From contig NW_019217784.1 in the NCBI RefSeq assembly GCF_002571385.2, forward strand, positions 1,782,912-1,846,911: DNA of 64,000 nt, written 5' to 3'. This stretch comes from Stylophora pistillata (taxonomy: Eukaryota). Of the stretch, positions 749 through 64,000 are shown piece after piece. Made by a program: the position numbers and the translations under genes. Each line of letters opens with the position of its first letter. Position 1 is the first letter of the stretch. The notes beneath the pieces are model-generated. The model was not told where the DNA came from and did no database searches. It was given only the letters and a program-made list of their open reading frames with translations.

Positions 749-3700
749 TCAGTTGAATGGCTTCTCGCCAGTGTGAGTACGTATGTGGTTATTTAAGGTG
801 GTAGCCCCTGAGAAAGAGCGCGAACAGAACCCGCACTTAAACAACTTTTCATTGGTATGCGTGTCCACGTGACTTCTGAGTTCTGTCGGCGTCCCATATG
901 AAAGCGTACACTGGCCGCACTGATACGGTTTATCAGGGGTCTGGGAACACTCATGCATTTGAAGAAGAACCCGCTGAGTGAAAGTCTTTAAGCACTGCCG
1001 GCACCTCCACATGCCAAATTCGTCCGGAGACAGAGAGATTCCTGATATGTTAGTTCCTGAGTATTCATGATGTTGGGGCGTGTGGAGAAGTGGGGGTATG
1101 ACTGGACGAAGCGCAGGCATTACACACTTCGCTGCTTCTCCGTTCCGCTTGAGAGCTTGTCCTTCACTTGTGCGTGGAAAATTTTGTTGATCATCTGGAA
1201 AAGTCATAGTTTTGGCGTTGCTATCTTAAGATTTATATCAACAAGCGGCATGCCAATACGTTAACCCATAAGAGGTTATGTTCCAGCCTAACAAGCTTTA
1301 AAATACGACCCTTGAAAAAAGGACTCATTTCATGGAAATATTTGAATGCGTCGAAAGCAAATGAAAGCCTCTATGAAACGCGTCGGCCTGCAAATAACGG
1401 GTTACATGCTAAGGACTTTCATAAACAAGCCTAATTTTATTAAATCGACCCTGTGTGGAAGCTTTCTTTTTAAAGTGAATAAATTTAGTACTCACTATCG
1501 AAGAATTGTAAGGGCGGCATTTCACGCAAAGCGTTTATTTTCGGTGGCAGTCTTCTTTCGTGATTAGACAAGGAATCCTCATCTCTTTGCTGTTCCCAAT
1601 GTTTATCAGACAAATATCCTCGGGTTGAATTTTCAGTTTTCAAAACTTTTTCTCGCGAGTCCTTGTTCCTTAATTGCAATGAATAAAAATTGTCATCATT
1701 GGACGTAGGCATTTGCAAAAGATTCCTGGAAAATTGTCTGTCAACTGTCGTCGTTGCAGTTAAATCTGTCTTAACCATTATACTTTCAACCGAACTTGCA
1801 GCCATGCTGGGGCTACCTCTATTTCCAGAAGTGCCAAGCTTGTCTCGAGGGAAAACATTACCCAAACTACTCGCGGGGCGCACGAAGCGTGGAGCTGGCT
1901 CACGTGGTGAAGGGAATCTAAAATTACCCATATTAGGATTATCACGTGATTCTTGAAATCCGCAGGTTTTTGAAAATCGTGCCATTGGGTCGACAAACGA
2001 ACTGGCGGGACTGCTGACCGGAGAGCTTTGAGCATTGGAAGATGGCACTGTGAAATAAAAAAGGAGAGATAAACGTAACATCTCAGTCAGGCGGTCTTAA
2101 TTTACAAGCAATGTGAGAGTTTGTAATGGGGTTCTCATTCTGAGGAATCAAGAATTCTTAGCATATTTCAAAAGGCCATTAAGAGAAGGTTGGGTTACTC
2201 AGAACAGATAAAACACTTGAAAGTTATGCTTGGTGGCTTCGATTTACACACTAACTCTTGGTCGCTGATTTAAAAATATGACAATAAGATATAGGGGTAA
2301 CTTCTCCATTTATTATACTGCTTACATATTTCCTTTTTAATTGTTAGTTTGACTAACTCGAAACAAAACCTTGCAAATTATTCTCAACTGAAACGTTAAC
2401 TAGTTCTCTTTAAACCCGATATTGAAAATAAGAAATCCTTTTTTTAGGTAAGTGGTAAAAATCAGCATTGCCTTACCAGATTCTCTGAAGAGTTCATAGT
2501 CCTGAATACCTAGAGGAATTCCAAGGAATTGTGGATATTTTTCATCATACCAGACCAGTAATTCTGTTCCTGGCGGAACCTCTTTGAACGCTCGGTAAAA
2601 AATATTGCCACAGTATTGAAAAGCGTACAGATTCTGCTCCTTCACATGACGCGCACATTGAATAAATCGCATCCAACTGGACTTGTGTTCATCGCGTCCG
2701 TCAATATAGTGACTTAGTCGGCCATCTTTGTAGATCTATAAAGCAAGAATCTGAATATTCAACATCTCACTGCGTCAGGTTGCGCAGGTGTAGCGAGGCA
2801 AGAGGACGAGGGGCAACTTGACCGTGGGGTTAAGATACTAGACGCGCTCCAAGTTCAACTCCCTGCCCCCTCCTCCCTGTAACTTACTGGGTTACCACAC
2901 TATGAATTATTTCCAAGTCCTAAAAAAAACCTTAATCATTTCTCTCCCAACATATTGATAACAATTTTCCGGAATTAGATCTCTAAAGAAATCCTAAATC
3001 TTTTAAATCTTTTATATGGAGTCAGTATATCTATTTCCTTGAAATATGTTGATAGTCATAATGTTATGCTCAAAATAAACGCACAATTTTGATTAATTTG
3101 TTTTGGATAAACAATATATCCACAACATGAACTTTAAGACACCTGTCATACCATATCAGATATTTATAGGAAGATATATATTTAGAATATTTTACCTATT
3201 TATAATTGTTCTCTGAATTATTTTTCAAGTTATATATGGCTCAAAATATATTTACAGACATATAGATTTAGGAACTCCGAAAAAGGAGAAAAATCTTAAA
3301 ATACTTCAAGAGGATTGGGCCCCATATTAAGAATTGAGCCCCATATTAAGGATTGCACTCCATTAGGCTTTGGTAGATTGTGCTCGAAAAAAAACCATAT
3401 TATGCTTCTAGCAGTGCTCATATTTTTTAGAAATTATGCTAAAATTATGCTACTTTCTGAAAATTATGCTCTCTGTCATCCAAATTATGCTACTTACATT
3501 TTACACTGATTTTAAGGAAAATAAAGATCATCAGTGGCTTAACTCTATCAATTTTGACTTTAATGAACATTCACATAGTCCACCTTCCAGTCTTACAGTC
3601 TTTAGCATCGCAAATACGCATGTGCGTACCTCGAAAAGCCAAATGATTAACAAATGATACAAATGATACGTTCTCTAGAGATTAAAGCTCTCGGTATGGC

Positions 3701-5948
3701 ACTGGAAGTGCTTGAAGTGGTGGAAGTGGATGTACTCGAGGACGACACCATCTTTGATTTGAGGCCTGAGGGGCCGAGCCGCCCAGCCATAAGCGTGGTG
3801 GCCTGAGTCTCAGTCTTATGCACAGGGTGACCTCTGCCGCCTGCCGGACCATATTTGACCTGGGCCTTAGCACAGACCTCAATATTTTCCAAAAACAATA
3901 CAAAAATAAAATACAAACTGAATTATTCTAGAGCTATGATGGTTTTTTTTTGTTGTTGTTGTTTTCAACGCATGAAAGCTCGGATTATGCCAGCAGTGCT
4001 AAACTGAAATAAAAGCTGAAAATAATGCTCGTTTTGCTGAATTATGCTTAAAATTATGCCAGTACTATCTACCAAAGCCTAGACTCCATATAAGAACACA
4101 CTAAATGCTGTTCAAATCTTACCTCCCATAGATATGTTGTTTCATAATTTGACGGAAAATTTCGAGCTGGCAGCCGGCTTCCCTCATATGGACCTATCCA
4201 TGTGCCCAGCGGAATGTGCTCTCTCGCGCACACTCCATAACCAGCCCCAGGAATACTTGATATACAGAGGTGCACTTCATCCGGGAATGATCGAATAGCG
4301 TTTGTGAGCCGAGGCATCTCATGGTCTGCGGTATTCTTCTGTTTTTTTGAAGACAAACCTCCTGTAATAAATAATAATGATAATTCAAACAAGGATAATG
4401 ATAATAATGATAATAATAATGATGATTTATCGACAGTATTTCTACATGGTAGCTCTACATCCGTCATACTAGCTAAAAACTAAAGACTCACAAGAAACAT
4501 TCACTATTTACATAAAGTACTCAAAAACTGTTAAAACTACATAATCTAAAATACTTTAGATACCACGAGTACCCATAACTAGGAAACCTTATCGAGACAA
4601 CTTATGAGGTCAAACGCATGTTTGTTCTGTTCTTAAGAACTGTACAACAATTATTTTTGAAAGTGTTGAAGTCTGGACATCGCCTCCCACTCGCGGGTAG
4701 GGCAGTGATTAAAGTCGATAGAATACTTGAGAGGCTGACATGACATGCGTCATAATCACGTGCCTGTCAGATGTCATGAAAAATGTAGCAGTCCGAGATC
4801 GCGTAGTGCGATGGAAGAGAGCTAGCCACGACCTTGACTACCAGAGCCTCTACACCGTGAATCGAGATCACAGCATAAACAATAAGGACATAAACAAAGT
4901 AATGGTGCCACAAATAAAGCTAGGAATCCTGTCAAACCAAATGCAGATCCCTGACATGCTTATAAAGAGCTCTTACTTACAGAATAAACAGACCACACAT
5001 GACCAAACCGCAGCATGAGAGATCATTTCTGATCTGTTTTTTACCTTCATTTCAAAAAAGGCCCCTTTCTAAAACCTTTCACCGGAGCCTAAACTCTTCT
5101 GACTCAAATGCACTCTATGGCTATTGAAAAATGTGTATTTGAAAAGAGGATCTCGAAAATGAACAGTTAATTTGTGGCCCAGATACCAATGAATAAAACT
5201 CTTTTCACAACTGTCAAAGACAAAGACGTATTATTGTCACTTGAAACCTCGAGATAAACCGGAAAACTCGCACGTTTTCCTTTTTACGCAATTTTTATTT
5301 GATGAAATTTTTGCACAGGATTTGCCGAGTTTCAAATGTTTCCACTGCATCCGAAATGTATTACCTCTGCATGAAGGAAAGTTTAAGTGAACAATACGCA
5401 CAAGGCAATATATTGGCTTGAAATTTCTGCCCATGCAAATTTTTTGTGGTAATCCTTCAGGGCAGGCGCAGAAACCTCGTAAACAAAACATTGAAAGCGG
5501 AACTTTTTAGAACAATCAAATTAATGCAATGTCGACAAAAGAGAATAACAACGTTATCAATGCTATCCTGAATATTAACATATTCGTGAACACTCTAGAC
5601 ACTTTGTGGTACGGTTTTCTTTGGAAGTAGAAACGGGCTTGTATTGCTTCATGGTAGTTTTAAGAGCTGAGTTAAATTCCCTCCTTTATCAAAAATATCA
5701 GTGATATTGTTTTTAGCGATTTTGTCAGGCGCACTCGATAAAAGATTGCTTTTACCGTCATGTTAATAAGCTATTTTCGTACCTTGTTCATCTCCGGCCT
5801 TCCGTTTCAGTTTCTGCAAATCTATAACCCTGACTTGTTGAGAACCATATAAGACTAAATTTAGAGTTCTCTCGTCGATCAGACAATAACCATTTCCTCC
5901 AGTGTAGTCCTTTGTGTTTTCTTGTTTTGGGCCGGTTTTGTCTTCCAT
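749..5948 (-). CDS. PRDM6: PRDM6-like PR/SET-domain zinc-finger protein, paralogue g1 (~563 aa to the first TGA; ~589 aa if read through to TAG at 671-673)
   Basis: Exons 5948-5783, 4361-4123, 2735-2477, 2047-1496 and 1224-749, all GT-AG with phases 1,0,1,1. Contains the pre-SET motif [15 protein letters not shown], the PR domain ([57 protein letters not shown]) and fingers [39 protein letters not shown], which match vertebrate PRDM6 as I recall it. Possible 5' UTR exon ends at 7377 (GTGAGT donor). AATAAA on the minus strand at 624-629. Confidence 0.9.
3364..4081. mobile_element. Non-autonomous hAT-like DNA transposon in g1 intron 2
   Basis: Terminal inverted repeats TAGGCTTTGGTAGAT / ATCTACCAAAGCCTA. 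Near-perfect 8-bp target-site duplication CACTCCAT (3356-3363) / GACTCCAT (4082-4089). Multiple AATTATGC subterminal repeats. Confidence 0.8.
4366..4735 (-). mobile_element. Probable 5'-truncated LINE 3' end with (ATT/ATC)n tail in g1 intron 1
   Basis: The minus strand has a broken frame ..SLP../[12 protein letters not shown] resembling a LINE ORF2 C-terminus, then a short UTR and a trinucleotide tail (4366-4425) abutting the exon-2 acceptor. Confidence 0.35.
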
Positions 5949-16178: not shown

Positions 16179-19100
16179 ATGGACGGTTCGCCATCATCAA
16201 CAGGATCTTCACAGTACCGTGTGCATTTTACTGAACAAGATCTGCAATATGTTCTGTACGGGAGAAATCCTGTGGAGGTGGTACAAATTTTAAAAACGAC
16301 GACTGAAGAAGACATGGACAGCTCAGGTAAATTAAACTTCGAGTTCCACGCATACATGTTATTGACCTAGGGCGAGGTCTTAACGGTAGGGAGCTACTGC
16401 AACGAGGTCTGTACTTACAGAAAACACCAAGGACCAATTTCTCGCACTAGGTGCTAATTTTTTTGTCTTACGGCTAACTGTTAACCCCGTTGGGACCCTC
16501 TGAAAAATATTCCATTGGAAGTAAAATACTTATGGACGGATTTCTTGCATGTAGAAACCTACGCAATCAAATTTTCACGACCGTAATTAAATTTTATCAA
16601 AAAAAAAACATTCTATGGCTCAACGTATAAAACTAGGAGAGTTACATAAGTTAAAGTCAATCTTCTGTTAAACCATTGTTAAAGATCATATAAATAAAAT
16701 TAAAAGGGACAGTTAACATTCTACAAAACCCAGGGCTCAAAGTTGAATTTTGGCTTTGGGAGCACTCGTGCTACCAGATGTAAAATTTTAGGCGCACTAC
16801 TAAAATTCTAGGCGCACAGCGAAAAATGTTAGGAGCACAGCTTAAAATACTGGTGGAACCAAAAAAAAAAAAAACAGAAAGCTTCAGACGTTGTATAAGT
16901 AATCATTTATCGGCATGATGTCTTTTATTTTAAACGGATCTGTGTTTGTTCCCACCTTCAGGCTACTACTCTACATTAGAGATAACAATAATACTGTTAT
17001 CATACTGTTAGGTTTTTTTTCAATTAACTTCTCCATCTCAAGAAGTATTGCACTTCATGGTACCTGTACATTCAAGGCAACAGAAAAATTCCGTATTCAT
17101 TTCCTTTGAAATGAGCGTGAATAACTAAGAAAAAATACACTGCCAGTTTACTGTTCACAACTTTCATTTGATTTCCAATGAATACACCTTTAGTTTAAAG
17201 CTGAAACAGACTTGGACTTGGAACCATGTCCTTAATACAACATTAACTCGATCATTCGAAATCCTGTGAGTGCCACGAGTCAGCAACTGAGATTAGTTCA
17301 TCTGGCCACTTTCTCTAAGCAAAGTTGGGACGCCTTGGTCTCTGACCGCTACGGTTCAAATAACAATCCCTGCAATAAACATGGCTCTTACTCTTCGAGC
17401 GCTTAGTAAGTGTCTCATGTTTAAAATTGCTGCATCCATTGACTAAGGATGGGAAGGCTTTACAGTATCGGCAGCGAATCAACTCTTTTTCTGAATCGCA
17501 TTCAAGCCATTCGAATTCCTTCAGCCATGCTCTCTGAAACTTATATACTTTTCTTTTTTTGTTGTCTCTGGTTCGTCCTCTATATCTTGGAGTAAAGCAC
17601 TATCAATGGAGCTGGACACTGAAGAAGTTTTCGAGTTCGAAGCTGAAGAAGAAGGCGCCGGCCGGCTGTTCAATAACAAAACTATAGTTATGCAAATGAG
17701 CGTTTCGTAAGAGAATAAATTACATTGATTGCCATTGACTTAACTGAGATGTACAATACAATACAATACAATAAAGTAATTTATTATTCGTCGTTTTATT
17801 TAAATTGCTCCCGCCGTGAAGAAAAAAAGTCTTTTAAACCAGGTTGTTTAGACATTCTTGCCTCTGGCTTTACCTTTCACATCGACCGGTGAACTTGATT
17901 GCCGAGAAGCACGTGCTTTAAAGGTAGCCTTCACTCGCATGAGTCAGCGGAGTATTTGCAAAACCGAATAGGACTGGGATAGAATGGGAACATGGAGCTC
18001 CGAGTTCGGAGAAGCCACAGCAGATAAAGACCAATAAAACGCACACTGATGCAAGGAAAATGATAACTTTATTGTTTGCAGCCCGATTATGTCATACCTA
18101 CGATTGAACTTATTATTTCAATCTTCCGTTTCATGTCCAACCAGTCGGAGTCATTTTAGAATGATCAGGTAGGAAAACAGAGTTGAGTGGCGATAAGCTC
18201 AGTCGCACTAATCTCTGCGATTTATAGGGGCGCAAGTGCGATCACACATGAATTTTTAGGCGCACAATTAAAAATCTAGTCGCATGTGCGACCAGCTGGT
18301 CGCTAACTTTGAGCCCTGAAACTCCCATAAATATAATGAATCAAAACCTCTCTTAGAATCGGCAGATTCGGATTTAAATTTGCTTCTGCCTGGGACTGAA
18401 AGATCGGTAATTAGGTTTTGTATCTAGAAAATTGCTTTAAATTTTATCGGAATATGTAATAACGATCTATACAACAAACAGAGTCTATTTGCACTCAAAG
18501 ACAAAATTTATAAACGCGCTCAGCCAACCAGCATCCTCTATACTGAAACACTAACATTAAATAAACTTTCTGTTATTAAGTAAAATGAAACTTTTAACAT
18601 AACTGAAATTATGTGACACTGATCAAATCAAATGTATGTGTTAACATATAAGAACATTTCAGTTGCGCTTAAGGCATGGTATGGTGTAGACTTTTGTGTA
18701 AGTGTCAGTATATTTTGTTTTTGACAAGGCAATTGGGTCCACTGATAGAGTGAAGTGGAGAAATAAAAATTGATATTAAAAAAAATTAATTGAAAAAACA
18801 TTTCTTACATAAAAACCGAGTAATATGTGCTAACTAATTTTTCTATATAAAAGAAACCGATCAATGTGTACAATCAATATAGTAAAACTCTATCTTATTT
18901 TGAAAATTATAGGGAGAGATCCTTTATTTGCTTGTCTCCGACAAAAGCTTCTAGGAAAAAAAAATTAATTAGCTCGTAATAATCAATTTATTTCATTTGA
19001 CTCTCACTGTTATCCAAAAGAACAACAACCCGAGTTTCTCAAAACAGCACCAGACAAAAGATGGATTAACGTCGCCATGGAGACAGGTCAAAGTAAGTCC

Positions 19101-21922
19101 GCAAGAAATACAAAGCTATGTTACGCTGTGTCCTCGTTCCCGGATGAAGTGAAACTTTGCCTGTCTGGAATCCCAGGGGAGGGCCACGGAGTTTGCGCAA
19201 AGCATCATATTCCTGCGGGAACATGGATTGGTCCATACGAAGGAAAGTGTCTTTCATTGGAAACTGACAACGTTAACGTTACCCCGGATATAGACACGTC
19301 ATACATGTGGGAGGTATGTTCGCTTGTAGACTATAGGTTTATCACTTTAAGATTAATGAATTGACTTTTAAATTTTTCAATATTACAATATTGAAATCAG
19401 GCTTATGACTAAATTTCACATACTTACACTGTGTTTCTTGAATCACTGCAAGTTCACTTTATTGACAAATCATGCACCAGGCTTTTTAGGTTTTATTACT
19501 GAATTCGAACCAACACTCAACTTGTTTCCTCCTGTAAAGCTCTAGACAAATGAATCATAACTCAATAGCTGAGAAAATAACATCGATTATGGTATTTTTT
19601 TTCTGTTTCTTTGTTTGTTTTTGTCATTTCTTTCGGAAATCCAGTAGCACTAAGACCAGCACCAACATTAATATGTTATTCTTTCTTGCTGCAGGTCTAC
19701 GACAACGGTAAGCTGGCATTTTTTTTGGACGGAAGTGATACGGATACCTCTAGCTGGATGCGCTTTATTCGCTGTGCTCGTCACAAGGAGGAGCAAAACA
19801 TGTTTGCATTCCAGCACAACAAGAGTATCTTTTATCGCGCTTTCCGTGAAATACCGAGTGGCACGGAGTTATTGGTCTGGTATGATGACAAATATTACCT
19901 CCAGCACATGGGAATACCTGTTAGTAACTGGGATAAGGACATTTCACAGCACTTTCCAGGTGAGAGATTTCTCAGTAACTGAAACTGGATCATTGTATGC
20001 CTAAAAAAAGATGGCTCTGATGCCATAATTAGCAAATGTAGTCCAAAATAAGGAGGTCACATACGTTAGTTTTTTTTTTTTTCAACAACGAATTCCAAAA
20101 ACGTTGCCTTTCAATTCCTGAGTTCAGAAAATATAAATGCGCGAATTAAGACATTGTTTATTGACTATTTTGAATTAGATGTTGTGTCAGCAATTCATTA
20201 CATAATAATTTGGATATATCAACAAAGTTGAAATGGCAAATTGGCCACCGTAACGATTACAAAAGCTGACGTTTCGAGCGTTAGCCCTTCGTCGGAGCAA
20301 ACAGAGGAATTGTGAGTCGTGTGTGCTTTTAAGGGCAGAAAATGGAGCTACGTTATTGGTGGGAACATGGCAACGAGAAAAACAGGAATAAATTACTGCC
20401 TTCTTTCAAACCGGCAGTCTAAATCCCACAGTGATCAACGAACGCTTTTCATTCCACTAATTCATTCGTGTTTTTCTCGATGCCATGTTCCCTCCAATAA
20501 CGTAGCTCCATTTTCTGCCCTTAAACACGAAGGCGCGCTATAAAAGGAGCCTTAGGTCCCACTGGACCATTTGTCAATCAACCGTCGTGTGATGTAGAAC
20601 TCTTAGAGTCAAGTCAGCTTGAGCTACAGCTCCTCCAAAGCAGTGAACAGCGGGCGCATTCCTTAAAATTGTTTTATTTCTTCATCACAATACAAGAATG
20701 AGATTTGTATTTCCTTTCTCCAATGGAAACTGTCTTTATTTGTGGCGGTAAATTTGAGATTGAAGTAGGTGGTTCGCACGTTACCTCATGCCACCATGCT
20801 GGTGGAAGTAAACAGTAGATATCTCATGCATTAGCTCCTTTTGTTCCTCTACCAGCATTTGAATTTGACCCGCACACGTTAACGGTGAGTGACAAATGAA
20901 CCTAGGTCTTCCCAGGGAAGGCTTCTTTATACAGCGCGCCTTCGTGTTTAAAAGCACACACAACCCACAATTCCTCTATTCGCTCCGACGATGGGCTAAC
21001 GCTCGAAACGTCAGCTTTTGTAATCGTTACGGTCGCCAATTTATCATTTCAACTTTGTTGATATATCCAAATTATTTCGTTACCCCCACCGACGCAGCCC
21101 CAAACATTTTCTTTAGAAACTATCAGCCTTAATTCATTACATAATTCGATTTGGTCAAACTCTTGTCCTGTAACAGGACGTACACAGACGACGAGCAAAT
21201 ATATGACAAAATGTAACTCCATTTCTTTTCTAGTTTTTAAAGGGAAAGCATCGAGCACGCAACATGCAGGCAATGTCACTATTTCAAGCGCCCATGAATC
21301 ACAGAGTGAACAAGAAACTTCTCCAGTTAATATGAGTCATGAAACTAACCATCAAGAGAGGAGCAGCAAGTCTTGTGTCAAAAACAGCCTCCCTCCTTGT
21401 AAGCGGCAGGTTGACAAATCATTCCCTCAAGAAACAGAACGACCCCTCAAGCTGCCCCGAATGCAACAAGAATCGAGCAATGGTACCTCACCAGCAGAAA
21501 ACAACTCGGTTACCACCACAGGAATTCAGCTGACCACAGGATACCGTAAGATATATGATAAAGTGTTGGAGAACATCAGGGAAAGCGATGATTTCAAATG
21601 TGGTCAGTGCAAAATGTCCTTCACTCAACGCTCTCTTCTGAATAATCATCTCTGTTCGCGCATGCCTTGTAAGCCCTATCGATGTGGCCATTGTCATGAA
21701 TCTTTTGCGCAACCTAAAGAACTGCGCATGCACGCAGTTGTTCACGTGAGTGAGAAGCCCTTCAAATGCGGTTACTGCCTGCGATCGTTCAGCGGAGCGA
21801 CTACTGTGAATAATCACATGCGCACGCATACTGGAGAGAAGCCATTTTCATGTGAACGGTGTGGAAAGTCTTTTTCACAAGCTTCCCAGCTAAGTCGACA
21901 TCGTAGGATTTGCATAAATTAA
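16179..21922 (+). CDS. PRDM6: PRDM6-like PR/SET-domain zinc-finger protein, paralogue g2 (~464 aa)
   Basis: Exons 16179-16326, 19021-19313, 19695-19959 and 21234-21922 (phases 1,0,1). Motif [12 protein letters not shown], intact PR domain ([29 protein letters not shown]) and four PRDM6-type fingers. No zinc knuckle. The ATG follows an AG acceptor, so an upstream exon may exist. AATAAA at 22541-22546. Confidence 0.9.
16731..18318. mobile_element. Non-autonomous hAT-like element (~1.6 kb) in g2 intron 1
   Basis: 14-bp TIRs CAGGGCTCAAAGTT / AACTTTGAGCCCTG with TAGGCGCAC subterminal repeats at both ends. TSD not clearly preserved and no transposase ORF. Confidence 0.7.
20207..21130. mobile_element. 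Penelope-like retroelement relic with inverted pseudo-LTR arms in g2 intron 3
   Basis: 15-bp flanking duplication AATTCATTACATAAT (20192-20206, 21131-21145) and inverted arms at about 20207-20330 and 20945-21075. Residual frame [19 protein letters not shown] (20401-20460) resembles a PLE GIY-YIG C-terminus. Minimal hammerhead motifs in both arms. Confidence 0.75.
20982..21015 (+). ncRNA. Minimal type-I hammerhead ribozyme-like motif (PLE-associated; core variant CCGACGA)
   Basis: GCT-CCGACGA-T-GGGC-TAAC-GCTC-GAAAC-GTC-AGC: stem I GCT/AGC, stem II GGGC/GCTC, palindromic ACGT stem III and a GUC site. An inverted copy lies at 20265-20298. Confidence 0.6.
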
Positions 21923-32917: not shown

Positions 32918-35424
32918 ATGCAGGCATCCACTGTTGAAAAGGCAGCGGCATTCCCGAGAACACAGCTTAGCACTGTCAAGGAAAAACGGCCAAAAGAAGC
33001 AATCATAAAACCGCGGGGTTTTGCCTTCACGGCCGAAGACCTGTATAATTATCTGCACCAGAAGACTGGAAATGTTGAGACAATTAACATTGAAGAGTCT
33101 AAGAGCAAGAAACTGGAAGAAAATGGTTCAGGAATGGAGAAACCTTCTTCATGTAGGTTGATGTCTTTTTTTAGACTTGCTTGTTTATTCGAATTATTGT
33201 TTCTTGATTGAATCAATCAATTCAGTGTTTGTTTGCTTTCTGTGAGGCCATCGTTCGGTTCCAGACGTAAACGATTCTGCTGACCTTTATTCCAAAATGG
33301 CTGGTCCGTTTTCATTGAAGCACTTTCAAATCGAAATAAATCGACAACAGTATCATATAAAAACGTTTCTTGATTTCGTGGATTTGCACGGCCTAAAGCC
33401 TAAGTCTTACAAAACGTAAAGTGCAAATTTGGGAGCGAATGGTTCCTGGTAAGAATTTGGATAACAAAAGCACCTTCCCTCCTTTTTTTTGTGAGTGGAT
33501 ATATACATATATCATCGCCAAAGTTAAGAAGAAAACAAATTTCATTCCAATCCTTTTCCTCAGTTTGCAGAATCTGTAACAAGATCTATACAATCCGCTG
33601 CCCTATTCATCCACCCTCTAGCCAATCGGAGCCGAGCCTGCCAGGAGACTGGAACAGCTACGCCTTGAAATCTTTCCCGGATGTAGTTCAGCTGTGTAAG
33701 TCCAGCATACCTGGCAAGAAGCATGGAGTGTCCGCGAAACAACACATTCCTGTGGGCACGTGGATCGGACCCTATGAGGGAAAACGGATTAATCCCGAAG
33801 ATGTCAAACCCAGTATGGACTCTTCTTACCTGTGGGAGGTACGAGACAAAACAAAAACACCTATATCAGTTTCAAGTTAGGTATTGAGAAAGATTTTTAT
33901 ATTGAAAAACCTAAAACTAAGCTTAAAAGCAAGATTTCTAGGATGCGCGGTCTTAAGATGAATAGGACACAGTTTGCTTTCTACTCGTCAATTCATTTCA
34001 TCAATTAATGTCGCAGGTTTACATTGCATTTACCTGAACGAACACAGTAAACAGAATGTATAAAGAACTTTCTATTGTGCATACATTTCGATGGATGATT
34101 TTTAACCTGACTCTTATTCATTTTAGATCTACAAAGATGGCCAAATTTTGTATTACCTCGATGCAACGGACGAGAACTCGTCCAGCTGGATGCGATTCAT
34201 TAAATGTGCTCGCCACAGAAGCGAGCAAAACCTGTTTGCTTTCCAGTACTGTGGCAACATTTATTACCGAGCGTTCAGGGATATTCCTGTAGGAACAGAG
34301 CTGCTTGTGTGGTACGAAGATATCTACCCACAATATTTTGGTATTCCGATAAGCATTCACGACTTGAATTCAACGGGTAAGACCAGTTTTTCTTGATATC
34401 TCTCTCACATATGACACGTAGAATGCCACACAACTGCCTATATCGCCTTTGTTTCGATTCATCCCTCTTGTCATTGTTATAGGAAAAATAAAGATAGAAT
34501 TGACAAGAAAGCGAATGGCTAAAACAATATTGAAGACGAGTTTGACATGACACTCTTGCGATTTAATTGATAACAAGAAATGTCAGACTTGTCAGGCAGT
34601 TTTCGAAGTTCGACTATGATACTAATTTTAGTTTACTTTGCTCTTTAGGATCCAGGCCTTACCCAGTAATGCCAACGACTTACACAGATGGACAACAGGT
34701 CTCCCCCATTCCTCCTCCGTCAATAACAGCTGGAAAACAAGCCTCTGCTCAATTACAAACATCTTCTAATAGGAGATCACCACGTGACTCACCTCCGACA
34801 AGACCTACGCAGACTCCAAGCGCGACAGAAGGAGAGGTCCATGTAAAAAAACAGGCTCCAAAGGAAAACATCAAGAGGAAATGTGAAGATAGCAATGGCA
34901 GCAACAAGAAGGCGAAGATGCAGAACACGCCCAAGACTGACGGACCAAAGGAGATGCTTAGGAAATTGGAGGAAGCGCGTCTCAAGGACCTACAGGACAA
35001 GACGGAGTTGCCATGTGAATGGCCTCGTGTTGCTGATGGGGAATTCATCTTGGAAAATGGCGAACCAAAGATCTGGCATTGTGGTCAATGCGACAAGTCT
35101 TTCGCTCAGCGCAGCTTGCTTCAAATGCAGATCTGTGCAAGAAATCCAAACAGACCTTACCAATGCGGCCACTGTTCGCAGGAGTTTGCGCATCCTAACG
35201 AGTTGCGTACGCATGCTGTCATTCATTCAGGGAAAAAACCATTCAAGTGCGGGTTTTGCTCGCGGACTTTCGCCGGAGCAACAACTCTTAACAACCACGT
35301 CCGAACCCACACAGGAGAAAGGCCTTTTACCTGCAACAAGTGCTACAAAACATTTTCACAAGCATCGCAACTTAGCAAGCACAAAAGATCTCTCTACGAG
35401 TGTTTGCCCAGAGACAATTACTGA
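32918..35424 (+). CDS. PRDM6: PRDM6-like PR/SET-domain zinc-finger protein, paralogue g3 (~511 aa)
   Basis: Exons 32918(or 32924)-33152, 33564-33838, 34127-34376 and 34649-35424 (phases 1,0,1). Motif [12 protein letters not shown], zinc knuckle CRIC..CPIH, intact PR domain and four fingers, with ZF1 His replaced by Gln (LLQMQIC). The true start may be an upstream ATG|GT exon. AATAAA at 36063-36068. Confidence 0.9.
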
Positions 35425-36440
35425 TTCATGACACACACGAGGTTTTTACATTTGATAACGTTCTGTAAAGGGAAAACTCACACTCTAAAAGTGCTTTTAG
35501 CAGCACTGTGTCTTTCCAGATTGTATAGTTACTGACGTTGACTAAAGTTTATGCTTACGTTTCGATTTTTCGCCTTTTATACACACCTGATTGAGATAAT
35601 TCGCCTGTGTAGTCAACAGTCATTTTATAGTTCATGTCATTTTTTAAATATTCCTGTTCCAACCCTGTACAAAGACAAGGAAGTATGTGGAATAAGAGGG
35701 AATAGTCTTTCAGAAATAACCTGATTAAGTTATGAAAAAATTTTTTTTTTATTCCAACTCATTTAAATCTCATTTAGGTTGTAAAAAAACAAGATGCACT
35801 TTTTGATAGTCAGGAATAACCAGACTTTAAGTTAAAAAATAGACGACAAAATACTGGAAATTTTCAAACTATGGTTTTTATTGTTATTCCCCTACCGAGT
35901 AATTCTTCAATACAGTGATAGTGTTCTGCAGGCATCTTTATAGGCTTCATCTTGTAAATAGTCATCGAGTGATATCTTGTACATTTACCAAACCTTTGAA
36001 AAAGGCATATATTTATAATTCAAACCATTCATTTTCGTAATATGAATCAACAGTCAGTTATGAATAAATAACTTCCTTGCTTTATCAAAACTCTGTGTTC
36101 GTTTTTTTACCATTTGGGGGATAATTCAATTACTTCACTTTGGAGAATGAACACTGAAAGACTGTGGCGGTTCCCACCCTACCCCACTGAGTCTTTTACG
36201 CTCAATGACGTGGTATCACTGACGCGATATCCCTTAACCTTCTCACTAACATCTAAAAACCCAATTCAGCCAACCGATGATCATAAATTTCTTTATTGAC
36301 TCATTTGAGAACTGGCAGTTAAATCCACTCTGTGAAAGAAGTCTCCCTTTAAATTTTTTCGCAGTTCTTATCACTATCGTAACTTTCAGTTTGACAAAAT
36401 TGTCCAAGAGAAGTTGACCTGTTCCATATTTTTAGTTAAC

Positions 36441-38117: not shown

Positions 38118-38126
38118 ACTAACTTT

Positions 38127-40764: not shown

Positions 40765-43700
40765 ATGACAAGGAAATCGAGCAAACAAGACGTGTCCTGC
40801 AAAATGTCACATCTGTTTAGTGAAGAGGCTAAAAAGAGGCTTGAGCTAAATTTGGTAAGCATTAAACAGAGAGAGAGAGTAATTCCGAGAATGCTCCGTG
40901 TAGAGCAAACGAGATATATTACGATTTCAGCGGGGAACAAAAAAGGCGGTTTTATTTCTTGTCCTCTCTATGCCTCTTATTTAAAAACAGAAAGTACATT
41001 TTGTTTTCGGATTGTGCCAACATATTTGTTAATTTACTGTTGCCGGGAAGTACTTATTCCAACCAGACTTTTTCTATGATCGACTGCTAAGGCAAATATC
41101 ACTCATTGCATTTGCAATTTAAAGAACCAGTTGTCTTGTTCTAACACGTAGTTCAGTCGACCAGACCTAATTAATTTACATATGCTATCTCCCGTAGATT
41201 TAATGTTCAGGTTAATTCGAGATTCTTTGTAATTTTAAGACATAAAATTTCTTGTCAGTTGAATCAGATTGCTTTGCCATCTAACCTGGAACCCAATGCA
41301 TCTTCACATCAGAGCCCCAGATATTTCACCCCTTCAGAAGTGTTTACCGTCCTTTATGGCCAAACAACACGATGGCAGGTGAATAAAGATGAAATTGGTT
41401 CGCAGTCAGCAGGGCGTTTTGTAGAACAAGAAGCACTCAATCCAGGTAATTTTTGTGAACATAATTTAGAACGTTTCGTACGCCGAAAATATTTTGACTG
41501 GAAACCAAAACCAATCACGCGCGACTTCGCGTCAAGGCGCGTATTGATGGGAATAAACACGCGCATTTATACTCAGTTTTCTGATTTGCTTTCATTGGTC
41601 TAAGATTGTCCCTGATTTATTTACGGTTTTGAAGAGGACATCTCGACTTTTTTCTCGGCTTTAACAATTATCGATGAGTCCAGTAATACTATAGTTCCTT
41701 GTCTGCACCTGACAATTAAGAAACAAATCATCCCTTTTCTTTCCTCGAAAAAAAATTGCACTTGAAAGCAAAACCTTCTTAGGTGCTTAAATTATTTTGT
41801 GTGTATAATCACGTAAGATGAAACGAGTGGAGGAAATGTATTAATGTCGCAACATTGGTCACCAGTTTTCTCACCTGATCAGTTATCTGGTGAGGCCTAG
41901 TGACTATTATAAATTTGTTATTTGGCGAGAGCTTACTTTCAAGAAGATCATACAATTTAGTTTGGCTGCTGCAGAAACGTCATTCATAAGGCTTGGGATT
42001 TAATTTATTCTTTTTAAACTACAGTGGTTGTTTGAAAAATACTTCAATTCAATGACAATTACCTAAAGCCAAACAAACAAATTAGAATCTTGACAACCAT
42101 TTTAGTAGTTACAGGCATTTATTTGGAATGATTGATAGAGTATTTCATAGTTTTCCCAACTGTGACTGTGCAGTGGTTGCGCTTTATTCACCTCTGAGTG
42201 CCCTACGTTATGATGTGCAGTCATGCAATTAAATAAAATCTATTTATAAAGGAGTTTTGTCGCACGAAAGTTAGGTCTATACCAAACATGACGTAAATCC
42301 AAACTTCTTTGCCACAATTGCGAAATATTTTCTAGTATGTACCGCAGATTTCCGTTCGAATAGGCGGACGAAAGCTAAATTGGCAACTATTTCAATGAGA
42401 AATATTTGCGATAATAGTTTTGTGGTAATTAAAGTTTATGATGCTGTCCTTTAACATTCATTCTTTTCAGTTAAGTATTCAAGACTGGGGGGATACCATT
42501 CAAACCAATTATGTTAATAACGTAGACGGTTGCATTGATGTTTCAACAAAAGGAGGAAAAATATTCAACGTATTTTTACTCCTGAACTTTGTTGAGTTAT
42601 ACGTTAAGATTGATTCCTCAATACACGTTAGCTGAAAAAATTACCAGATTTTTCGCATCAAACATTCTGTCCACGGCATGGATAAGCAAACTCGTTGATG
42701 TAAATTATGATAAAAAAACAACTTGACAAAAAGCTATTTATCATCAAGTTCAATTTTAAATTTAGTCACAGAAAACTTGATTTAACGACCTCGAGAGAAA
42801 TATGGAAAGTTTAAGCACACAACTCCACAGACTTTTCCACTCACTTTGACTGGCAGCAGCGTCACGCGAGTGGACAGATGGAATGTTTTACCTTCTTGAA
42901 GCATTGCTCAGGGCAAAAAAGGGGGGCAGACAAAGACCTTTATTGAAAGTTTAATTGCCAGAGATAATTCTAGTTTTCTATAAGTATATGATGAAGGTAG
43001 AGCATGTCAGAGCCTGTACTTTCCTCAGACACTAGCCATCTAATCATGGCAAAGATATCCATAGATTTTGAAATAATCCATGATGAAGATTTTACCATCA
43101 TTACTTACAAAATCGATTGTCTTGGTCATAAGTGGGGCAAAACCTTTCATTCTCAAGATCTCAATGTCAATTCTCCCAACAGTCTGCCATACATTTCTTG
43201 ATGTTTTTGCTCTGAGAATTTGGGAATGAATCAAACCATAGCCCTCAGTTGATATTTTTTTACTTTATCCTCATCACATTGCTGTATAGTGATAACGTAA
43301 GCAGAAATTACTCACCGGTCAGTCCTGAAAAGATTCATATAAATATTCCCAAAGAAGGTTGGAGCAGTCTAACTCTGATCACTAATTTTTCCTTCAGCAT
43401 GTGAACTTTGTCAATCGATGCCCCGTGGCTCATGCGCCCTGCATAGGCAATCCACTCAGCCTTTGATTGACAAACGTGTAAGCTACGCCGTCAAGTCCTT
43501 ACCAACGGAATGTAAGCTTGGAGTCTCCTACTCGGCTGGGGAGGGGTACGGTGTGTACACCAATCAGCCCATTCCTACGGGAACATGGATTGGTCCATTT
43601 GAAGGAAGACGAATTCGTCCACGTGACGTCACATCAGAAATGGATACGTCACACATGTGGGAGGTAAATTGAAATAGGGAGCCTTGGGAGCCTGGGTCTC

Positions 43701-46700
43701 ATCTCGCGCTGTTGAAAAATAGCGGCCAGTTGTTGTCGCAACAAAAAAAAGCAGCTTAGATAAGTAAGGAGCAGTATTGCGTTCGTTTGACTCCAATTTA
43801 TAAGAAATTCATCGCAGAAGACGTGCAAAATTTAGGAAGCTGACCACGACAGCAATGATGTAGGATTTAGCAAAAAGTACATAAAAATCGTGTTTTTCTA
43901 ATAAAAACAAGATCAGGACTATGATTGGGAAAGATCTAGTTCTTCCAGAGTTAACTTTCACAGGTGAAAAGAGAATAGAAACCAACTGAAATTTGTTCTC
44001 ATGCCCGACAATAGATGATGAGTCAGGAGGATTAGGATCTGAAATAGGTCCAGTTTGAACTCTGAAAGTTTTTTGAGTGTCAAAACACTTTGCTGTTAAT
44101 CGGTGAAGTAGTTTAAGATGAGAGCACAGGTCTTTCATCATCGATCCCCGTTACGTCACTCGTTTGTTAAGCTTCCTACGCTGCCGCACTGGTTCGTAAA
44201 GGACGCACGAAAACAATACAATAGCGCGCATGTGCATTTAAATAAAACGCAATCAATCCCACAGATATACGAAGGTTCCACATTGTCTCATTACATTGAC
44301 GGGAGTGACGAGAGCTGCTCCAGTTGGATGCGATTTATCCGCTGCGCAAGACATAAGGGCGAGCAGAACTTGTATGCATTTCAGTTTAACGGAAACATTT
44401 ACTACAGAGCGTTCAAAGATATTCCAACAGGCACAGAGCTGCTTGTATGGTACGATGACAAATACCCGATGTACATGGGCATTCCATTCGTTAGCGCTTT
44501 TCCAGGTGAAGCTAGTTCAGGTGAGATATTGGGTCAAATTGATGTTCAAGTTAAGGCAGTGTGTATTTTAAAAGCCTCTCATCTATATCTAGCACAAGTT
44601 ATTAAAACTGGGTTTCTCACCAGGTGGGTACATTAAAAAATATTTGAAAATACAAATTAAGTTACACTGGTGGTTAAAAGCGTCTCTGAAATTAGTAACA
44701 ATAAAAATGTTCCCTTTCACTTCCCCTAAAGAAGGTCCATGATTGCGACCGAAACGTCGGGAACATTTTTATTGTTACTAATTTCAGAAACGCTTTTAAC
44801 CACCAGTGTAACTTAATTTGTATTTTCAACTATTTTTGAATAGCACAAGTTAGTTGAAAGATGGAGGTAGTCAGAAAGGTAACTACATCGTCATTGAGAG
44901 AGATAGACAAATGACATGCAGCGACAGATAGTTAGTGGTTCTCGATTGATAAACAGGCAAGTAATTAGTGAATGAGTTGGCTAATTATTTCTCAGACTTC
45001 CTCAGTCAGTATCGATGTGTAGGTAAAACTGCCAGCCAACAGTTCAGCTACTTAGTTACTTCGTTGATCATCCTATCCAGCCATCCAGCCATTGCTTAGT
45101 AAGTCGAATTTGTGTCAGTCAGCCTTTTGTGAGTTATTAAGTCAGTCATTGTGAGTCACAAAGTCAGTTGATTGACAATTTGTCAGTAATCCTATCAGTC
45201 AGTCATTGTGAGTCACAAAGTCAGTTGATTGACAATTTGTCAGTAATCCTATCAGTCATCCAATCTGTCATTGGGCCGCTCTATACGTCAATTAGCCAGC
45301 CAGATTGCTAGCCAGATTGTCAGCCAGATTGTCAGCCAGATTGTCAGCCAGATTGCCAGCCAGATTGTCAGCCAGATTGTCAGCCAGATTGCCAGCCAGA
45401 TTGTCAGCCAGATTGTCAGCCAGATTGTCAGCCAGATTGCCAGCCAGATTGCCAGCCAGATTGTCAGCCAGATTGTCAGCCAGATTGCCAGCCAGATTGT
45501 CAGCCAGATTGCCAGCCAGATTGTCAGCCAGATTGTCGGCCAGATTGCCAGCCAGATTGTCCGCCAGATTGTCAGCCAGATTGTCAGCCAGATTGTCCGC
45601 CAGATTGCCAGCCAGATTGCCGGCCAGATTGCCAGCCAGATTGTCAGCCAGATTGCCAGCCAGATTGTCAGCCAGATCGTCAGCCAGATTGTCAGCCAGA
45701 TTTTCGGCCAGATTGCCAGCCAGATTGCCAGCCAGATTGCCAGCCAGATCGTCAGCCAGATCGTCAGCCAGATTGTCAGCCAGATTGTCGGCCAGATTGC
45801 CAGCCAGATTGTCAGCCAGATTGTAAGGCATTACAAGCTAAGCAATCCTCACAATTTTCAATAACTTGTCATTCTCACAGCCACGCATGACAAAAAACAA
45901 GACAAAATGGTACCGCAACAGTCCAACCGACCAATAAACTCAATATCATCCTCAGTAAAACCTCAAGACACTACCCGATATACAAGAACAGCCTCTAGTT
46001 CCCAGTTCACGCCAAGTACAAGTCCTGTTTGGAGTTCTCAAGGTATGTAATAGTAATCAAAGTTTAATGTCTTTTTATTGCCCGAGCCAGAGGCTCATGT
46101 ATGAAACGCTAGACAACAACCCACTATCACACAGTAATCTCGTGCGTGGGAAATTAACGTCTCCTACCCCTAACCCTGCATAGTTGATCCCCTATGAAAA
46201 GGAAAAGCAACTGATTAGTTTTATTTGTAACTTGTTTTCAGATACGAAAACTCCGCCGACTGATGCAAAAAGACTACCTCCGCTTATTCCGACATACACC
46301 TTGAACCAAAGACGACCATCGTTAGAGAGCGTACCACGAGACCAGAGGTCTCCTTTGAAAAGTGACGTGAAAAGTGACGTCGCTAACCTAGGCAACAATA
46401 GAATACCCAGTCCAACTAGTCAAACAAGCGAGTTAACATCATGGCGATGTCAACAGTGCCATAAGACTTTCACTCAGCGAGTTGCATTACAAATGCACGT
46501 TTGTCCAACCCAACCAACCAAACCTTACCAATGCGGACAGTGCAGTAAGACATTCACTAACTCCTCAGAACTGCGCGCGCACGTGGTATCTCATACAACA
46601 GAGCGGCCGTTCAAGTGCGGCTTTTGCTCGCGCACGTTCGTTGGGGCAACGACGCTGAATAATCACGTGCGGACTCACATGGGTCAGAAACCTTTTAGCT

Positions 46701-46828
46701 GCGAGAAGTGCGGCAAGACATTTTCACAGGCTATGCACCTCGCGAGACACGCGCGGGAATCGTGTGACCTCGTGAAGGAAAAAAGTAGAACTGATACTGG
46801 CACAGCACATACGCTGTCGACCTTCTAA
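40765..46828 (+). CDS. PRDM6: PRDM6-like PR/SET-domain zinc-finger protein, paralogue g4 (~515 aa)
   Basis: Exons 40765-40854, 41259-41445, 43398-43663, 44265-44520, 45881-46042 and 46242-46828 (phases 0,1,0,1,1). Motif FTPSEVFTVLYGQ, knuckle CELC..CALH, PR domain with GPFEG and four fingers. The first exon and start codon are less certain. Confidence 0.88.
44602..44840 (+). mobile_element. Small retro-type (Penelope-like) insertion: ~70-bp-arm hairpin with a hammerhead-like motif in the loop, in g4 intron 4
   Basis: 12-bp flanking duplication TAGCACAAGTTA (44590-44601, 44841-44852). Inverted arms 44644-44714 and 44759-44829. The loop holds CCC-CTAAAGA-A-GGTC-CATGATTGC-GACC-GAAAC-GTC-GGG (44723-44761). 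Confidence 0.7.
45141..45258. repeat. 57-bp tandem duplication
   Basis: GTCAGTCATTGTGAGTCACAAAGTCAGTTGATTGACAATTTGTCAGTAATCCTATCA x2. Confidence 0.9.
45294..45823. repeat. 12-bp minisatellite GCCAGATTG(T/C)CA, about 44 units, intronic in g4
   Basis: Read directly from the sequence. It lies between g4 exons 44265-44520 and 45881-46042. Confidence 0.95.
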
Positions 46829-49305: not shown

Positions 49306-52300
49306 ATGGAGCTAACATACGAGGTAAGAAATTGCATCGAATTTAGACATAAATGAGTGTAAAGCGAAAGGTAAACAGCATCATCAGGAATCATTGTTTG
49401 AAGAAATGGGTCCAGTATGGTTTTATGTTTCATGAACTGTATTTTAAACCTGCATGTTAATATCCCAACAGTCAAAAACTGATAATTCAGCTCGGCAATA
49501 TTGCGTTAATGTTTAACAGCCATTTCCGCTAAATCTGTTAAATCTAGTAGTCTTTTTTCCCCCTCTTTTTACCTTGAATCTTAAAATATTCGATTAAACA
49601 TCCCGTCAGTCGCTGCATTTGTTTATTCTATAAATATTCCCATTTTGTTTTTGAAAGCTAAATAGCTTTTGAGCAGCGATTATTACTTGAAGCGAATATA
49701 TTCACGCACTGATGAATTTCTTCAAAGTCAGTCAGATGAATATTTATCATCATTAAAAATTTGTTGTCGTTATAATCAAAATCAACACTATCGATATCCT
49801 AGTGTATGCTTTAAGGATATTCTCCTTTTTTATTCTTTCCCCTTTAGAAACAAAATCTTGAGATTTCGACAAAGAATTTTCAACCTGTTTTAAAGAAACC
49901 ACGGTTTCAGAAAAACTACGCTAATTTCAGTCCCTCCAGAAGGAATTCTACAGGGAACAGCTTCAGTTATGAAGATTTACTGAGCTTTTTGTTCGACAAG
50001 AACAATATTCGGCCCCTAAACATCGAACAATCAGCCGTAACACACCAAAAAGATTGCTTCTGTAAGTATGCTGGAGTAAATGATTGATCTCCTTGGGGTT
50101 AATAAGTTAAAGTCAGCTTTAACTAGTGTTCTATGACAGCCTCTCTTTTTCATATGATTCAGGATTAGTAATTGAAAGAAATTCAAAGCACAAAGCGCAA
50201 GGTACTAGTGAAGCGCAATGGATCATGGGAAGAGGGATAAAATACCTAATTCACGAATCCCCTTCAACTTTTGCCCATTATTTTAGTTTTCATTTGTGTG
50301 TTGTACTCTGTGTCCGTGTTTTTTTGTTTTGTTTTTGTTTTGTTAGGGTTAGAATGGACACACACAAGGAATTATGGAATTTTTGTGATTTTGTCATTTT
50401 CAGGGTGTAACGCCAGTTTAGTAGAATCAAAGTTTCGGTGTCCTCAACACAGATTAGAAAGCCTTGGCACGAAGCAAACAAATCAGTTACCACTCACGAT
50501 AAGATCCCTTCCGCCGGAAGTTGGCTTGTGTCAGTCCAGCATTCCTGGCGCAGGATATGGGGTGTGTGCTAAGAGAACAATTCCTATTGGTGCATGGATT
50601 GGGCCCTATGAAGGAAAGTTTGTGAAGCCCGAGGAAATATCTTCTGCTGTAGACACATCTTACATGTGGGAGGTAGGGTTTCTCTTGGAAAATACACCGT
50701 GCAAAATATTTTAAATATAGTACGTCCTCAATCGCTTGGTAGACACACAGCAAATTTAAACTAATTGGGTGTTGGCCAAATGGCTTTACGACGATTACAT
50801 ATTTGATTTACCCCCCCCCCCCTTCCCAATAGATCTACAAAGACGGCATAATGACAGGATGCATTGATGGCAGCGATGAAAATTATTCCAGCTGGATGCG
50901 TTTTATCCGCTGCGCACGACACACAGGGGAACAAAACATGTTTGCCTTTCAATACCTGGGCAAGGTGTTTTATCGCGCTTTCAAGACCATCCAACCAGGA
51001 CAGGAAATGCTTGTGTGGTACGACGACAAATATCCACAGTACTTTGGTATCCCCTCAGCTATGTTTGACATGGGTACTGTCATACCAAGTGGTGAGTGAC
51101 CCTTTCTCCTCTAACATTTGAGCAGTCACAATAAAGATAAACAAATAAACAACAAAAACCACAAGAGACATAGTACCCACAGTCCACTAAATCCTGGATT
51201 GGAAGTGGATATATGTGGCAGTTACACGAGGCGGGTCACCGTTCCTGGTATTCTGCGTAACGAGTGAAAGGTGGGGAGTGTAAGTTTTAGGAGGTGACCG
51301 AGACATAGCCAAGATGACGAGCAATTCCAGAGGATTCCTCTGTAGTTCTGACCTAAACCAGGAGTCCATTACCCGGAGCTTCCATCTTCCATACTGACCC
51401 TCTGCGCCAACCCTGTTCCGTATCTTTCTATTTTTAGAAGCACCTCCCACGGCGGTTTTCGCGGGTGTTTTTATAATAGCCAATCATAAGAGAGCTGTCG
51501 TCTCTATTGTGTTACGTCTCTATTGTGTCACTTGTCAGGCCGCACGAAATTATTTCAATAATGGCGGAAAGCGCGGAAAGATTAAAGAGCCACCGCAAAT
51601 ATCTCAGTTCTAAAAATAAAAAGATACGGGACAGGGTTGACTCAAGGGTACAACTGAGATGGAAGCTCCGGGTAATGGGCTCTTGCCTAAAATCGTTAAA
51701 GTGACAAATGAGAGAAAGTAATACAAATGTTTAAGTTCATCTGAACTGGAGGATAAGTGGCTGAGACGTTAAAGCACTTGTGGTAATAACTAAAAGTCTG
51801 TCAAGTGTCATCAGCATAGTTAGAAATGGGGGGAAATATTTGAAAAGTTTCAAAGTGAATCTCACGATAAATAACGGTTTACCTCTGGTAAAGATGACAT
51901 TAGTGGTTGTGCTTGACTTGTTAGTTAGTTAGTTGTGATTGAGTGGTTGCTAGTGTTTATGATTGCTTTTATATTTAAGACAGAGATGATATGAAAAGTT
52001 TACAGCAGCTTAAGCTAGACTTTACATTGTTTTGTTAGATACCAGCTCCAAACCTAATGAGGTGATTGTTGTCACTACTCACGTAACAAACCAGCCGTTA
52101 GACACCAGTCCACAAAGTTCCTTCTTTCCCAGTCCTCCTCCCTCGCCTGTTTCTCATTCCAGTAGCCAATTTGGATCAAATCCAGTTAGTTTGAAAGGAA
52201 ATTGCTCTCCTATACGTAAGACCGGCGATGAAAGGCTTTCTTCTCCCAAGCACGAAGGCGCGATGAAACCTGTGCCAGACATGAAGTTCGTCTTTGAGAA

Positions 52301-52745
52301 TGGCTACAGTCCGCTGAAACAGAATGAGGGTAATGCAGTAACAGAAGCTGAGCGAGGACGTCCTGAATCATATGAATCACTCTCGCTGCCTGGGGATGAA
52401 TCAAATGTTTGTAAAAAGACAGCAGCAGTAAATACCGACTCCAAAGCCACGGAGCTTAGCGTAGGAACAGCTACAACTTTTAAAGAAATGTCTGTGTCTC
52501 AGATGGCAATTGGTACCCAGATCCCACCAATTCCTTATCAGTGTGGTCACTGCCCAGCCTCTTTTAACAATGTCTGTAAATTGCGCGCACATGCTGTCAT
52601 CCATGTCAGCAAGAAACCCTTCAAGTGTGGGTACTGCTCACGCTCTTTCACGGGGGCAACCACTGTGAACAACCACATTCGATCACATGTTGGAGGCCGA
52701 TTGTTCGCCTCTAGAAAACGTCCTCTCCAGACTGAGGAAGTGTGA
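49306..52745 (+). CDS. PRDM6: PRDM6-like protein, paralogue g5 (~488 aa), with only two intact zinc fingers
   Basis: Exons 49306-49323 (MELTYE, inferred), 49848-50061, 50404-50672, 50833-51091 and 52039-52745 (phases 0,1,0,1). Motif FSYEDLLSFLFD (this exon is missed by the ORF track), knuckle CFWC..CPQH split across the intron, and an intact PR domain. ZF1 is degenerate and ZF4 is absent. Confidence 0.87.
51170..51690. mobile_element. Degenerate long-inverted-repeat (MITE/foldback) element in the last intron of g5
   Basis: Inverted arms at about 51355-51480 and 51560-51690, e.g. CCATTACCCGGAGCTTCCATC / GATGGAAGCTCCGGGTAATGG. Right outer end not found. Confidence 0.55.
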
Positions 52746-63862: not shown

Positions 63863-64000
63863 TTTTCGCGTCTGCAAAAAATAAAACAAAGTTTGCATTA
63901 GATAGAATTCAAGAACGAAAACATTCAAACTTCCATTACAGAAAAAATAAAAAATAAAATCAAGAAGAAAATGTCAAGGCCGGATGAGGAAACAATATAG

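Follow-up and report, generated by a model that had tools for sequence, protein, structure and literature searches.

A PRDM14-type pre-SET helix in seven clustered coral PRDM6-type genes as a putative dock for the ETO co-repressor

A cluster of PR-domain genes in the stony coral Stylophora pistillata raises the question of what is encoded ahead of the PR domain and what it binds. The window, the whole stretch of 64,000 nucleotides analyzed here, contains seven of these genes (g1–g7). The original prediction placed in each of them an upstream exon that ends in a phase-1 intron and encodes a 12-residue pre-SET motif of the PRDM6/PRDM14 type, a candidate dock for an ETO/MTG co-repressor. The known precedent is the complex of mouse Prdm14 and Mtgr1 (CBFA2T2; PDB ID: 5ECJ), in which the pre-SET helix and a pocket of the SET domain are described to bind helices A, B, and D of the NHR1 domain (Nady et al. 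2015, PMC4749557). According to the same paper, the pre-SET helix accounts for 35% and the SET domain for 65% of the crystal interface, Mtgr1 is contacted by Phe185 and Phe187 of Prdm14 together with Leu and Val residues of the helix, and hardly any binding is seen with the SET domain by itself (PMC4749557). Here, we propose, with a probability of roughly three in four and on the basis of predicted structures, that the helix and the PR domain of the window genes dock the NHR1 domain of the host ETO protein.

All seven 12-residue peptides quoted in the original prediction were recovered by six-frame translation of the window, and the exon boundaries around them agree with it (Table 1). A phase-1 GT donor is located 61–91 nt 3' of the motif in all seven exons, a phase-1 AG acceptor precedes the first PR exon in all seven genes, and each motif exon leads in-frame, via GT..AG introns, into two PR exons and a zinc-finger exon, with spliced frames that are open through the PR domain. 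A chance match as the origin of the motifs was ruled out by a donor test and a leave-one-out profile. Of 5000 stop-free 12-mers drawn at random from the window, 263 had an open run to such a phase-1 donor, and six of the seven motifs were top-scoring against the 65,335 other stop-free 12-mers of the window; the g1 motif was outscored by 73 window 12-mers. After the motif, the MAFFT alignment contains a mostly hydrophobic strand of ~8 residues. Two descriptive points of the prediction did not hold. The N-terminal exons had been called otherwise unalignable, but MAFFT aligned them on the motif unaided. They had also been called hidden, but the motif exons of g2–g7 lie within existing NCBI models and are therefore annotated, and that of g1 is found in orthologues only.

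The in-frame joining of the motif exon to the PR exons is seen directly in RNA only for g3, where the joint 33152>33564 is represented by four raw reads (three starts) in one run and by contigs of three other runs. For g2, no motif-to-PR joint was found among the matches listed, RNA coverage of the gene notwithstanding; its spliced model is identical to the S. pistillata RefSeq protein XP_022781738 (464 aa). Continuous orthologue proteins on contigs, at 80–84% identity, are available for g1, g2, and g4. The continuous proteins of g6 and g7 (99% and 97.8%) are encoded on short contigs, which implies spliced transcripts if the run type of these contigs is taken as given. The backing of g5 consists of gene models and of relatives at only 54–58%.

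Table 1. Positions of the motifs and of the exons spliced to them (window coordinates; the last row gives loci outside the window).
Feature	Position	Strand	Basis or remark
g1 motif	5879-5844	-	six-frame translation
g1 motif exon	5783..5948	-	orthologue P0007 83% identical over residues 1-405
g1 PR and later exons	PR 4361-4123, 2735-2477; 2047-1496, from 1194 (span 749..4361)	-	in-frame TGA at 751-749 in the last zinc finger
g2 motif	16227-16262	+	six-frame translation
g2 motif exon	16179..16326	+	AG acceptor, ATG at 16179, 148 nt, phase-1 GT donor
g2 PR exons; zinc-finger exon	19021-19313, 19695-19959; 21234-21922 (span 19021..21922)	+	without zinc knuckle
g3 upstream exon, start codon	28492..28664	+	RNA joint to 32924 in 4/4 runs
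g3 motif	33026-33061	+	six-frame translation
g3 motif exon	32924..33152	+	RNA joint 33152>33564 GT..AG
g3 knuckle and PR exons; zinc-finger exon	33564-33838, 34127-34376; 34649-35425 (span 33564..35425)	+	
g4 motif	41325-41360	+	six-frame translation
g4 motif exon	41259..41445	+	start codon in exon ending near 40854 (NCBI model)
g4 knuckle and PR exons; zinc-finger exon	43398-43663, 44265-about 44520; 46242-46828 (span 43398..46828)	+	
g5 motif	49962-49997	+	six-frame translation
g5 motif exon	49848..50061	+	contained in NCBI model XP_022797975
g5 knuckle and PR exons; last exon	50404-50672, 50833-51091; 52039-52745 (span 50404..52745)	+	reduced finger array
g6 motif	55506-55541	+	six-frame translation
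g6 motif exon	55404..55617	+	continuous 556-aa protein P0010, 99% identical, 2.2-kb contig
g6 knuckle and PR exons; zinc-finger exon	57090-57394, 57988-58246; 58604-59493 (span 57090..59493)	+	
g7 motif	63742-63707	-	six-frame translation
g7 motif exon	63640..63871	-	continuous 499-aa protein P0019, 97.8% identical, 2.0-kb contig
g7 knuckle and PR exons; zinc-finger exon	63328-63060, 62954-62696; 62582-61861 (span 61861..63328)	-	
Host PRDM12-like/PRDM14-like motif loci	L034:3925-4020; L035:6405-6500; L041:5916-6011; L042:6309-6401		

The proteins covering g2–g7 and a g1 orthologue contain a PR-type SET domain (PF21549, E of about 1e-40 per domain), and C-terminal C2H2 zinc fingers are present, with a reduced array in g5 and a last finger cut by a stop in g1. 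The genome yielded 22 PR matches, ten of them clustered in about 100 kb of this contig, with seven inside the window, and 12 at other places. A tree of the PR domain was built from 63 rows; its bootstrap was not fully settled, and it carried a long-branch warning. In this tree, a 55-row group (99/98) comprises all ten cluster genes, one host gene on another contig (C412), and four vertebrate PRDM6. This group is separate from eight other host PR genes, including the PRDM14-, PRDM12-, and PRDM7/9-like ones. On sequence grounds, the seven window genes are of the PRDM6 type. Since g2, g3, g4, and g6 each fall into starred groups with other stony corals, the duplications are old. The window genes resemble vertebrate PRDM6 in the motif, the following strand, the PR domain, and the finger array, and in g3–g7 also in a putative zinc knuckle, but the coral has ten clustered copies plus one elsewhere, and g1 and g2 lack the knuckle. 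The knuckle pattern before the PR domain occurs in g3–g7 and in 66 of 99 homologues; it is built or abutted by the exon junction in g3–g7, and its Trp codon is split by the intron in g5–g7. For the corresponding Pfam family (PF18445), the sole match was that of g3, at E 0.04. Vervoort et al. (2016, PMC4760075) listed five Prdm6 genes each for Nematostella and Acropora digitifera, the Nematostella count being taken from a table with lost columns. The main text of that paper has no word beginning with "tandem", and the N-terminal motif is not treated in the available part of it. The other three genes of the cluster lie outside the window, flanking it (contig C1: 1760228, 1776290, and 1850541), and all carry the motif; the 1776290 gene has no zinc finger in the fetched stretch, and its relatives have no Pfam zinc finger. 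At C76:268708 and 270078, a PR exon and zinc-finger block with the same translation occurs twice, 1.4 kb apart.

The motif is widespread at a similar distance from the PR domain. It was found in 79 of 88 scannable homologues, 119–169 residues ahead of the PR anchor, and the named positives include stony corals, anemones, soft corals, and a hydrozoan. Of 120 homologues in total, 117 had a PR anchor and 88 had at least 40 residues to scan, and a protein counted as positive when it outscored no fewer than 99 of 100 shuffles. Among these 88 are g2, three near-identical copies of window genes, and two proteins from outside the Cnidaria, which were both negative. The motif is also present in 115 of 120 vertebrate PRDM6, about 154 residues N-terminal to the PR anchor. 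Across the 100 proteins of the g2 alignment, no gap interrupts the motif block, and 99 share its Leu. Within the window, positions 1, 6, 9, and 10 of the motif are hydrophobic in all seven genes and position 11 in six. Elsewhere in the host genome, the motif precedes the PR exons in the three other cluster genes, C412, three of four PRDM14-like genes, and a PRDM12-like gene, where the PRDM14 and PRDM12 labels reflect likeness by eye to sequences in the supplement of PMC4760075 and to PDB chains. Seven of these eight reading frames have a phase-1 donor. One of them is that of the PRDM12-like copy, whose score with the motif profile is low (3.1 bits). In 10 kb fetched for each, no convincing coding-strand motif was present at the PRDM7/9-like and other distant PR loci L036–L039 and L043 or at the PRDM14-like L040, a weak negative.

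The human PRDM14 and PRDM6 motifs cited in the original prediction match those given in the PMC4760075 supplement, where the motif is visible in human and mouse PRDM14, human PRDM6, and human and amphioxus PRDM12. Counted on these sequences, Phe185 and Phe187 of mouse Prdm14 are motif positions -1 and 1, and the Prdm14 residues contacting Mtgr1 correspond to the motif. A motif profile run against 1.84 billion representatives gave 29 matches at E 0.001; among the 18 inspected, 15 resemble lone motif exons of cnidarian-type PRDM6 genes, three are repeats, and no other protein family appeared. No Pfam family covers the motif in eight proteins, and 5ECJ was not matched at E 10 in sequence searches with the motif exons or with the g2 motif alone. 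With a profile of 15 motif sequences, an AMPK helix (E 0.0018) ranked above 5ECJ (E 0.26, tenth of 19); this AMPK alpha-1 match was set aside as a generic amphipathic likeness. By the measure of these searches, the motif by itself is a weak signature. Taken with the supplement sequences and the superposition of the g2 and g7 models on 5ECJ described below, the claim of a PRDM14/PRDM6-type motif in every paralogue is upheld: the motif is the PRDM14/PRDM6 pre-SET helix.

Both sides of the Prdm14–Mtgr1 interface have counterparts in the coral. The SET-side contacts Glu294, Cys319, Tyr339, and Pro366 are kept in all seven window genes, Ser290 in six (Thr in g1), and Met292 in five (Leu in g1 and g3). 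Vertebrate PRDM6 differs from the window genes at the latter two pocket positions, Ser290 being kept in 0 of 120 proteins and Met292 in 1 of 120, with Leu in 119. The PR-side residues may be conserved for folding. In the host genome, one ETO locus (C400, protein P0215) and one TAF4-like locus were found, and the host ETO retains Arg105, Lys109, and Asn141. The motif and pocket residues of 5ECJ are matched in the window genes and the partner residues in the host ETO, with binding predicted in the present case. The window genes differ from Prdm14 in being of the PRDM6 type, with a different finger array and a longer linker, and in the putative zinc knuckle that g3–g7 have between the helix and the PR domain.

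AlphaFold2 models of g2 and of g7, the most divergent copy, place a helix at the motif with pLDDT of about 90. The superposition on 5ECJ starts at the motif in both cases: for g2 at residue 15 versus entry residue 2 (Z 12.6, rmsd 3.0, 151 aligned) and for g7 at residue 48 versus entry residue 2 (Z 13.7, rmsd 2.5, 148 aligned). Most other PR structures align with the models from the PR domain only; the exception is PRDM2 (2QPW), which aligns from the motif region with rmsd 4.3–4.4. The original prediction had named a predicted NHR1 complex as a check. The pair of g2 (residues 8–235) and host ETO (residues 106–216) scored 0.78 versus 0.01 for the best of three controls and passed in two of three runs (0.78, 0.00, and 0.83, folded without alignments); since 5ECJ dates from 2015, this complex and the g2 and g7 monomer models may be memory of it and show likeness, not binding. 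Of 78 solved complexes, 51 attain the score mark, as opposed to 2 of 108 mismatched pairs; for eukaryotes, the figures are 71 of 105 and 2 of 126. Contact agreement among the g2–ETO runs was at least 19%, and the pLDDT of the partner was at least 56. In the predicted complex, motif residues 16–27 of g2 touch ETO residues 121–128, 146, and 186–190, and PR residues 142–147 and 174–178 complete the interface, like in the crystal. The claim of an ETO interface in every paralogue is therefore sustained in part: the motif is present in all seven genes and lies in the interface of the predicted complex, which covers g2 only.

In the mechanism that we propose, each of the seven PRDM6-type genes splices a short amphipathic helix before its PR/SET domain. 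The helix would fold back beside the PR domain, as predicted for g2 and g7, and the two would form a two-part dock. This dock would take the NHR1 domain of the coral ETO/MTG co-repressor, by a contact that is predicted for g2 and that we infer for the other six. With the zinc fingers bound to DNA, ETO would recruit silencing machinery, presumably leading to repression, as in the case of mouse Prdm14–Mtgr1.

The original prediction further suggested that graded divergence of the motif tunes the affinity for the co-repressor. Counted by eye, the identities to the human PRDM14 12-mer are 9, 6, 6, 6, 6, 5, and 3 of 12, with g7 at 3, and the hydrophobic face of the motif is kept in all seven paralogues. 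We assigned 38 homologues to a window gene; the motif could be scored in 30, none of which belongs to g5. In the 22 orthologues with PR identity <90%, identity was 0.68 in the motif, 0.22 in the 12 upstream residues, and 81% in the PR domain. The corresponding values for pairs of window paralogues were 0.32 (0.08–0.58) for the motif and 62% for the PR domain. As judged from these identities, the motif variants are paralogue-specific, conserved, and old, with no clear gradient, and it is doubtful that their divergence truly tunes affinity. We lean slightly toward the explanation that the paralogue differences are mostly drift at exposed positions after old duplications, with ETO binding about alike and with differences in DNA targets and expression. 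Most of the variation is at motif positions 3, 4, 7, and 8 while the hydrophobic face is retained, the PRDM14 identities form no smooth series, and the finger arrays differ (reduced in g5, truncated in g1). The excess of motif over upstream identity within orthologue groups (0.68 versus 0.22) speaks against mere drift and fits purifying selection on paralogue-specific versions, but says nothing on affinities.

The helix and the following strand could instead be a structural lid on the PR domain, with ETO binding restricted to some paralogues or to PRDM14. The monomer models, which place the helix confidently without a partner, the conserved strand after it, and the loss of Gly at motif position 12 in g3, g5, g6, and g7 are in line with such a lid. 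We consider it quite unlikely, because the best-kept motif positions are those touching ETO in the predicted complex and in the crystal, and the host ETO surface is fully conserved. That the helix docks elsewhere, for example into the helical groove of the related TAFH domain in TAF4 or of an unrelated cofactor, is very improbable: the genome has a second TAFH gene (C136, read as TAF4 from its sequence) and like amphipathic helices occur in unrelated proteins, but the PR-side pocket and the Arg/Lys/Asn trio of ETO are conserved together, and an unrelated 107-residue protein replacing ETO scored 0.00.

If the helix and the PR domain dock ETO as proposed, the coral genes look like further cases of the known Prdm14-type interface, the new point being that it appears common to PRDM6, PRDM12, and PRDM14. 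The dock is likely ancestral to these three, and the grip on ETO likely predates the coral–human split. Human and amphioxus PRDM12 have a similar motif near the N-terminus, as does the host PRDM12-like gene. A review names PRDM6 among the PRDM proteins that interact with CBFA2T2 and also links PRDM6 and CBFA2T2 in group 4 medulloblastoma (PMC9986075), and CBFA2T is enriched in Prdm14d-expressing cells of Nematostella (PMC10415408). For PRDM12 with CBFA2T2, the only literature found was the Prdm14 paper. No title or abstract was found that places the motif helix in PRDM6 or PRDM12, subscription journals being outside the coverage. Binding of PRDM6 to CBFA2T2, or of invertebrate PRDM14 to CBFA2T, may reportedly have been described already by Hendrikse in 2022 or Kawaguchi in 2019.

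Changes in PRDM12 cause pain insensitivity (PMC9306780, PMC10067717). Counted on the PMC4760075 supplement sequence, Asp31 of PRDM12 (Asp31Tyr, PMC9306780) is motif position 4. By our own count, Arg168 (Arg168Cys) aligns with Arg176 of g2, a top ETO contact in the predicted complex. Arg168Cys is classed as of uncertain significance (PMC10067717), and a preprint (10.64898/2026.09.17.752235) explains Asp31Tyr by a new degron instead. In its widest form, which we regard as unlikely, the reading would be that the pre-SET helix served the entire PRDM6/12/14 group as its ancestral ETO dock and already had a phase-1 exon to itself before the coral–bilaterian split; that about ten old coral variants bind one co-repressor with different strength; and that the dock is shared by PRDM12 and PRDM6 of humans, with Asp31Tyr in the motif and Arg168Cys on a predicted ETO contact. 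The proposed dock itself provides a residue-level, testable handle on co-repressor recruitment by PRDM6 and PRDM12, which among the structures found is solved only for PRDM14, and in the coral cluster ten natural variants are available for affinity measurement with a single ETO gene. The value of the locus rests on the clade-wide reading and on the cheap tests that are possible from it.

Several features of the gene models were also noted. The in-frame TGA of g1 (751-749, - strand) replaces the first Cys of the last zinc finger, at which orthologue P0174 has Cys, and is either an allele or an assembly error. The NCBI model of g4 has one more small exon, and in the last exon of g5 (52039-52745, + strand) the usual finger array has been deprived of its first and last members. 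RefSeq merges the neighbors g3 and g4 (32918-46828), g5 and g6 (49848-59493), and g7 and its right neighbor (61861-63871), and a GenBank model merges g2 and g3; these merged models are probably annotation errors. Short-period tandem repeats occur at 13200-13770 and 45250-45880, the former as two inverted arms flanking a run of N. An element at 20200-21130 in the last intron of g2, with very high depth in the RNA runs and many loose ends, is likely a dispersed repeat with inverted ends.
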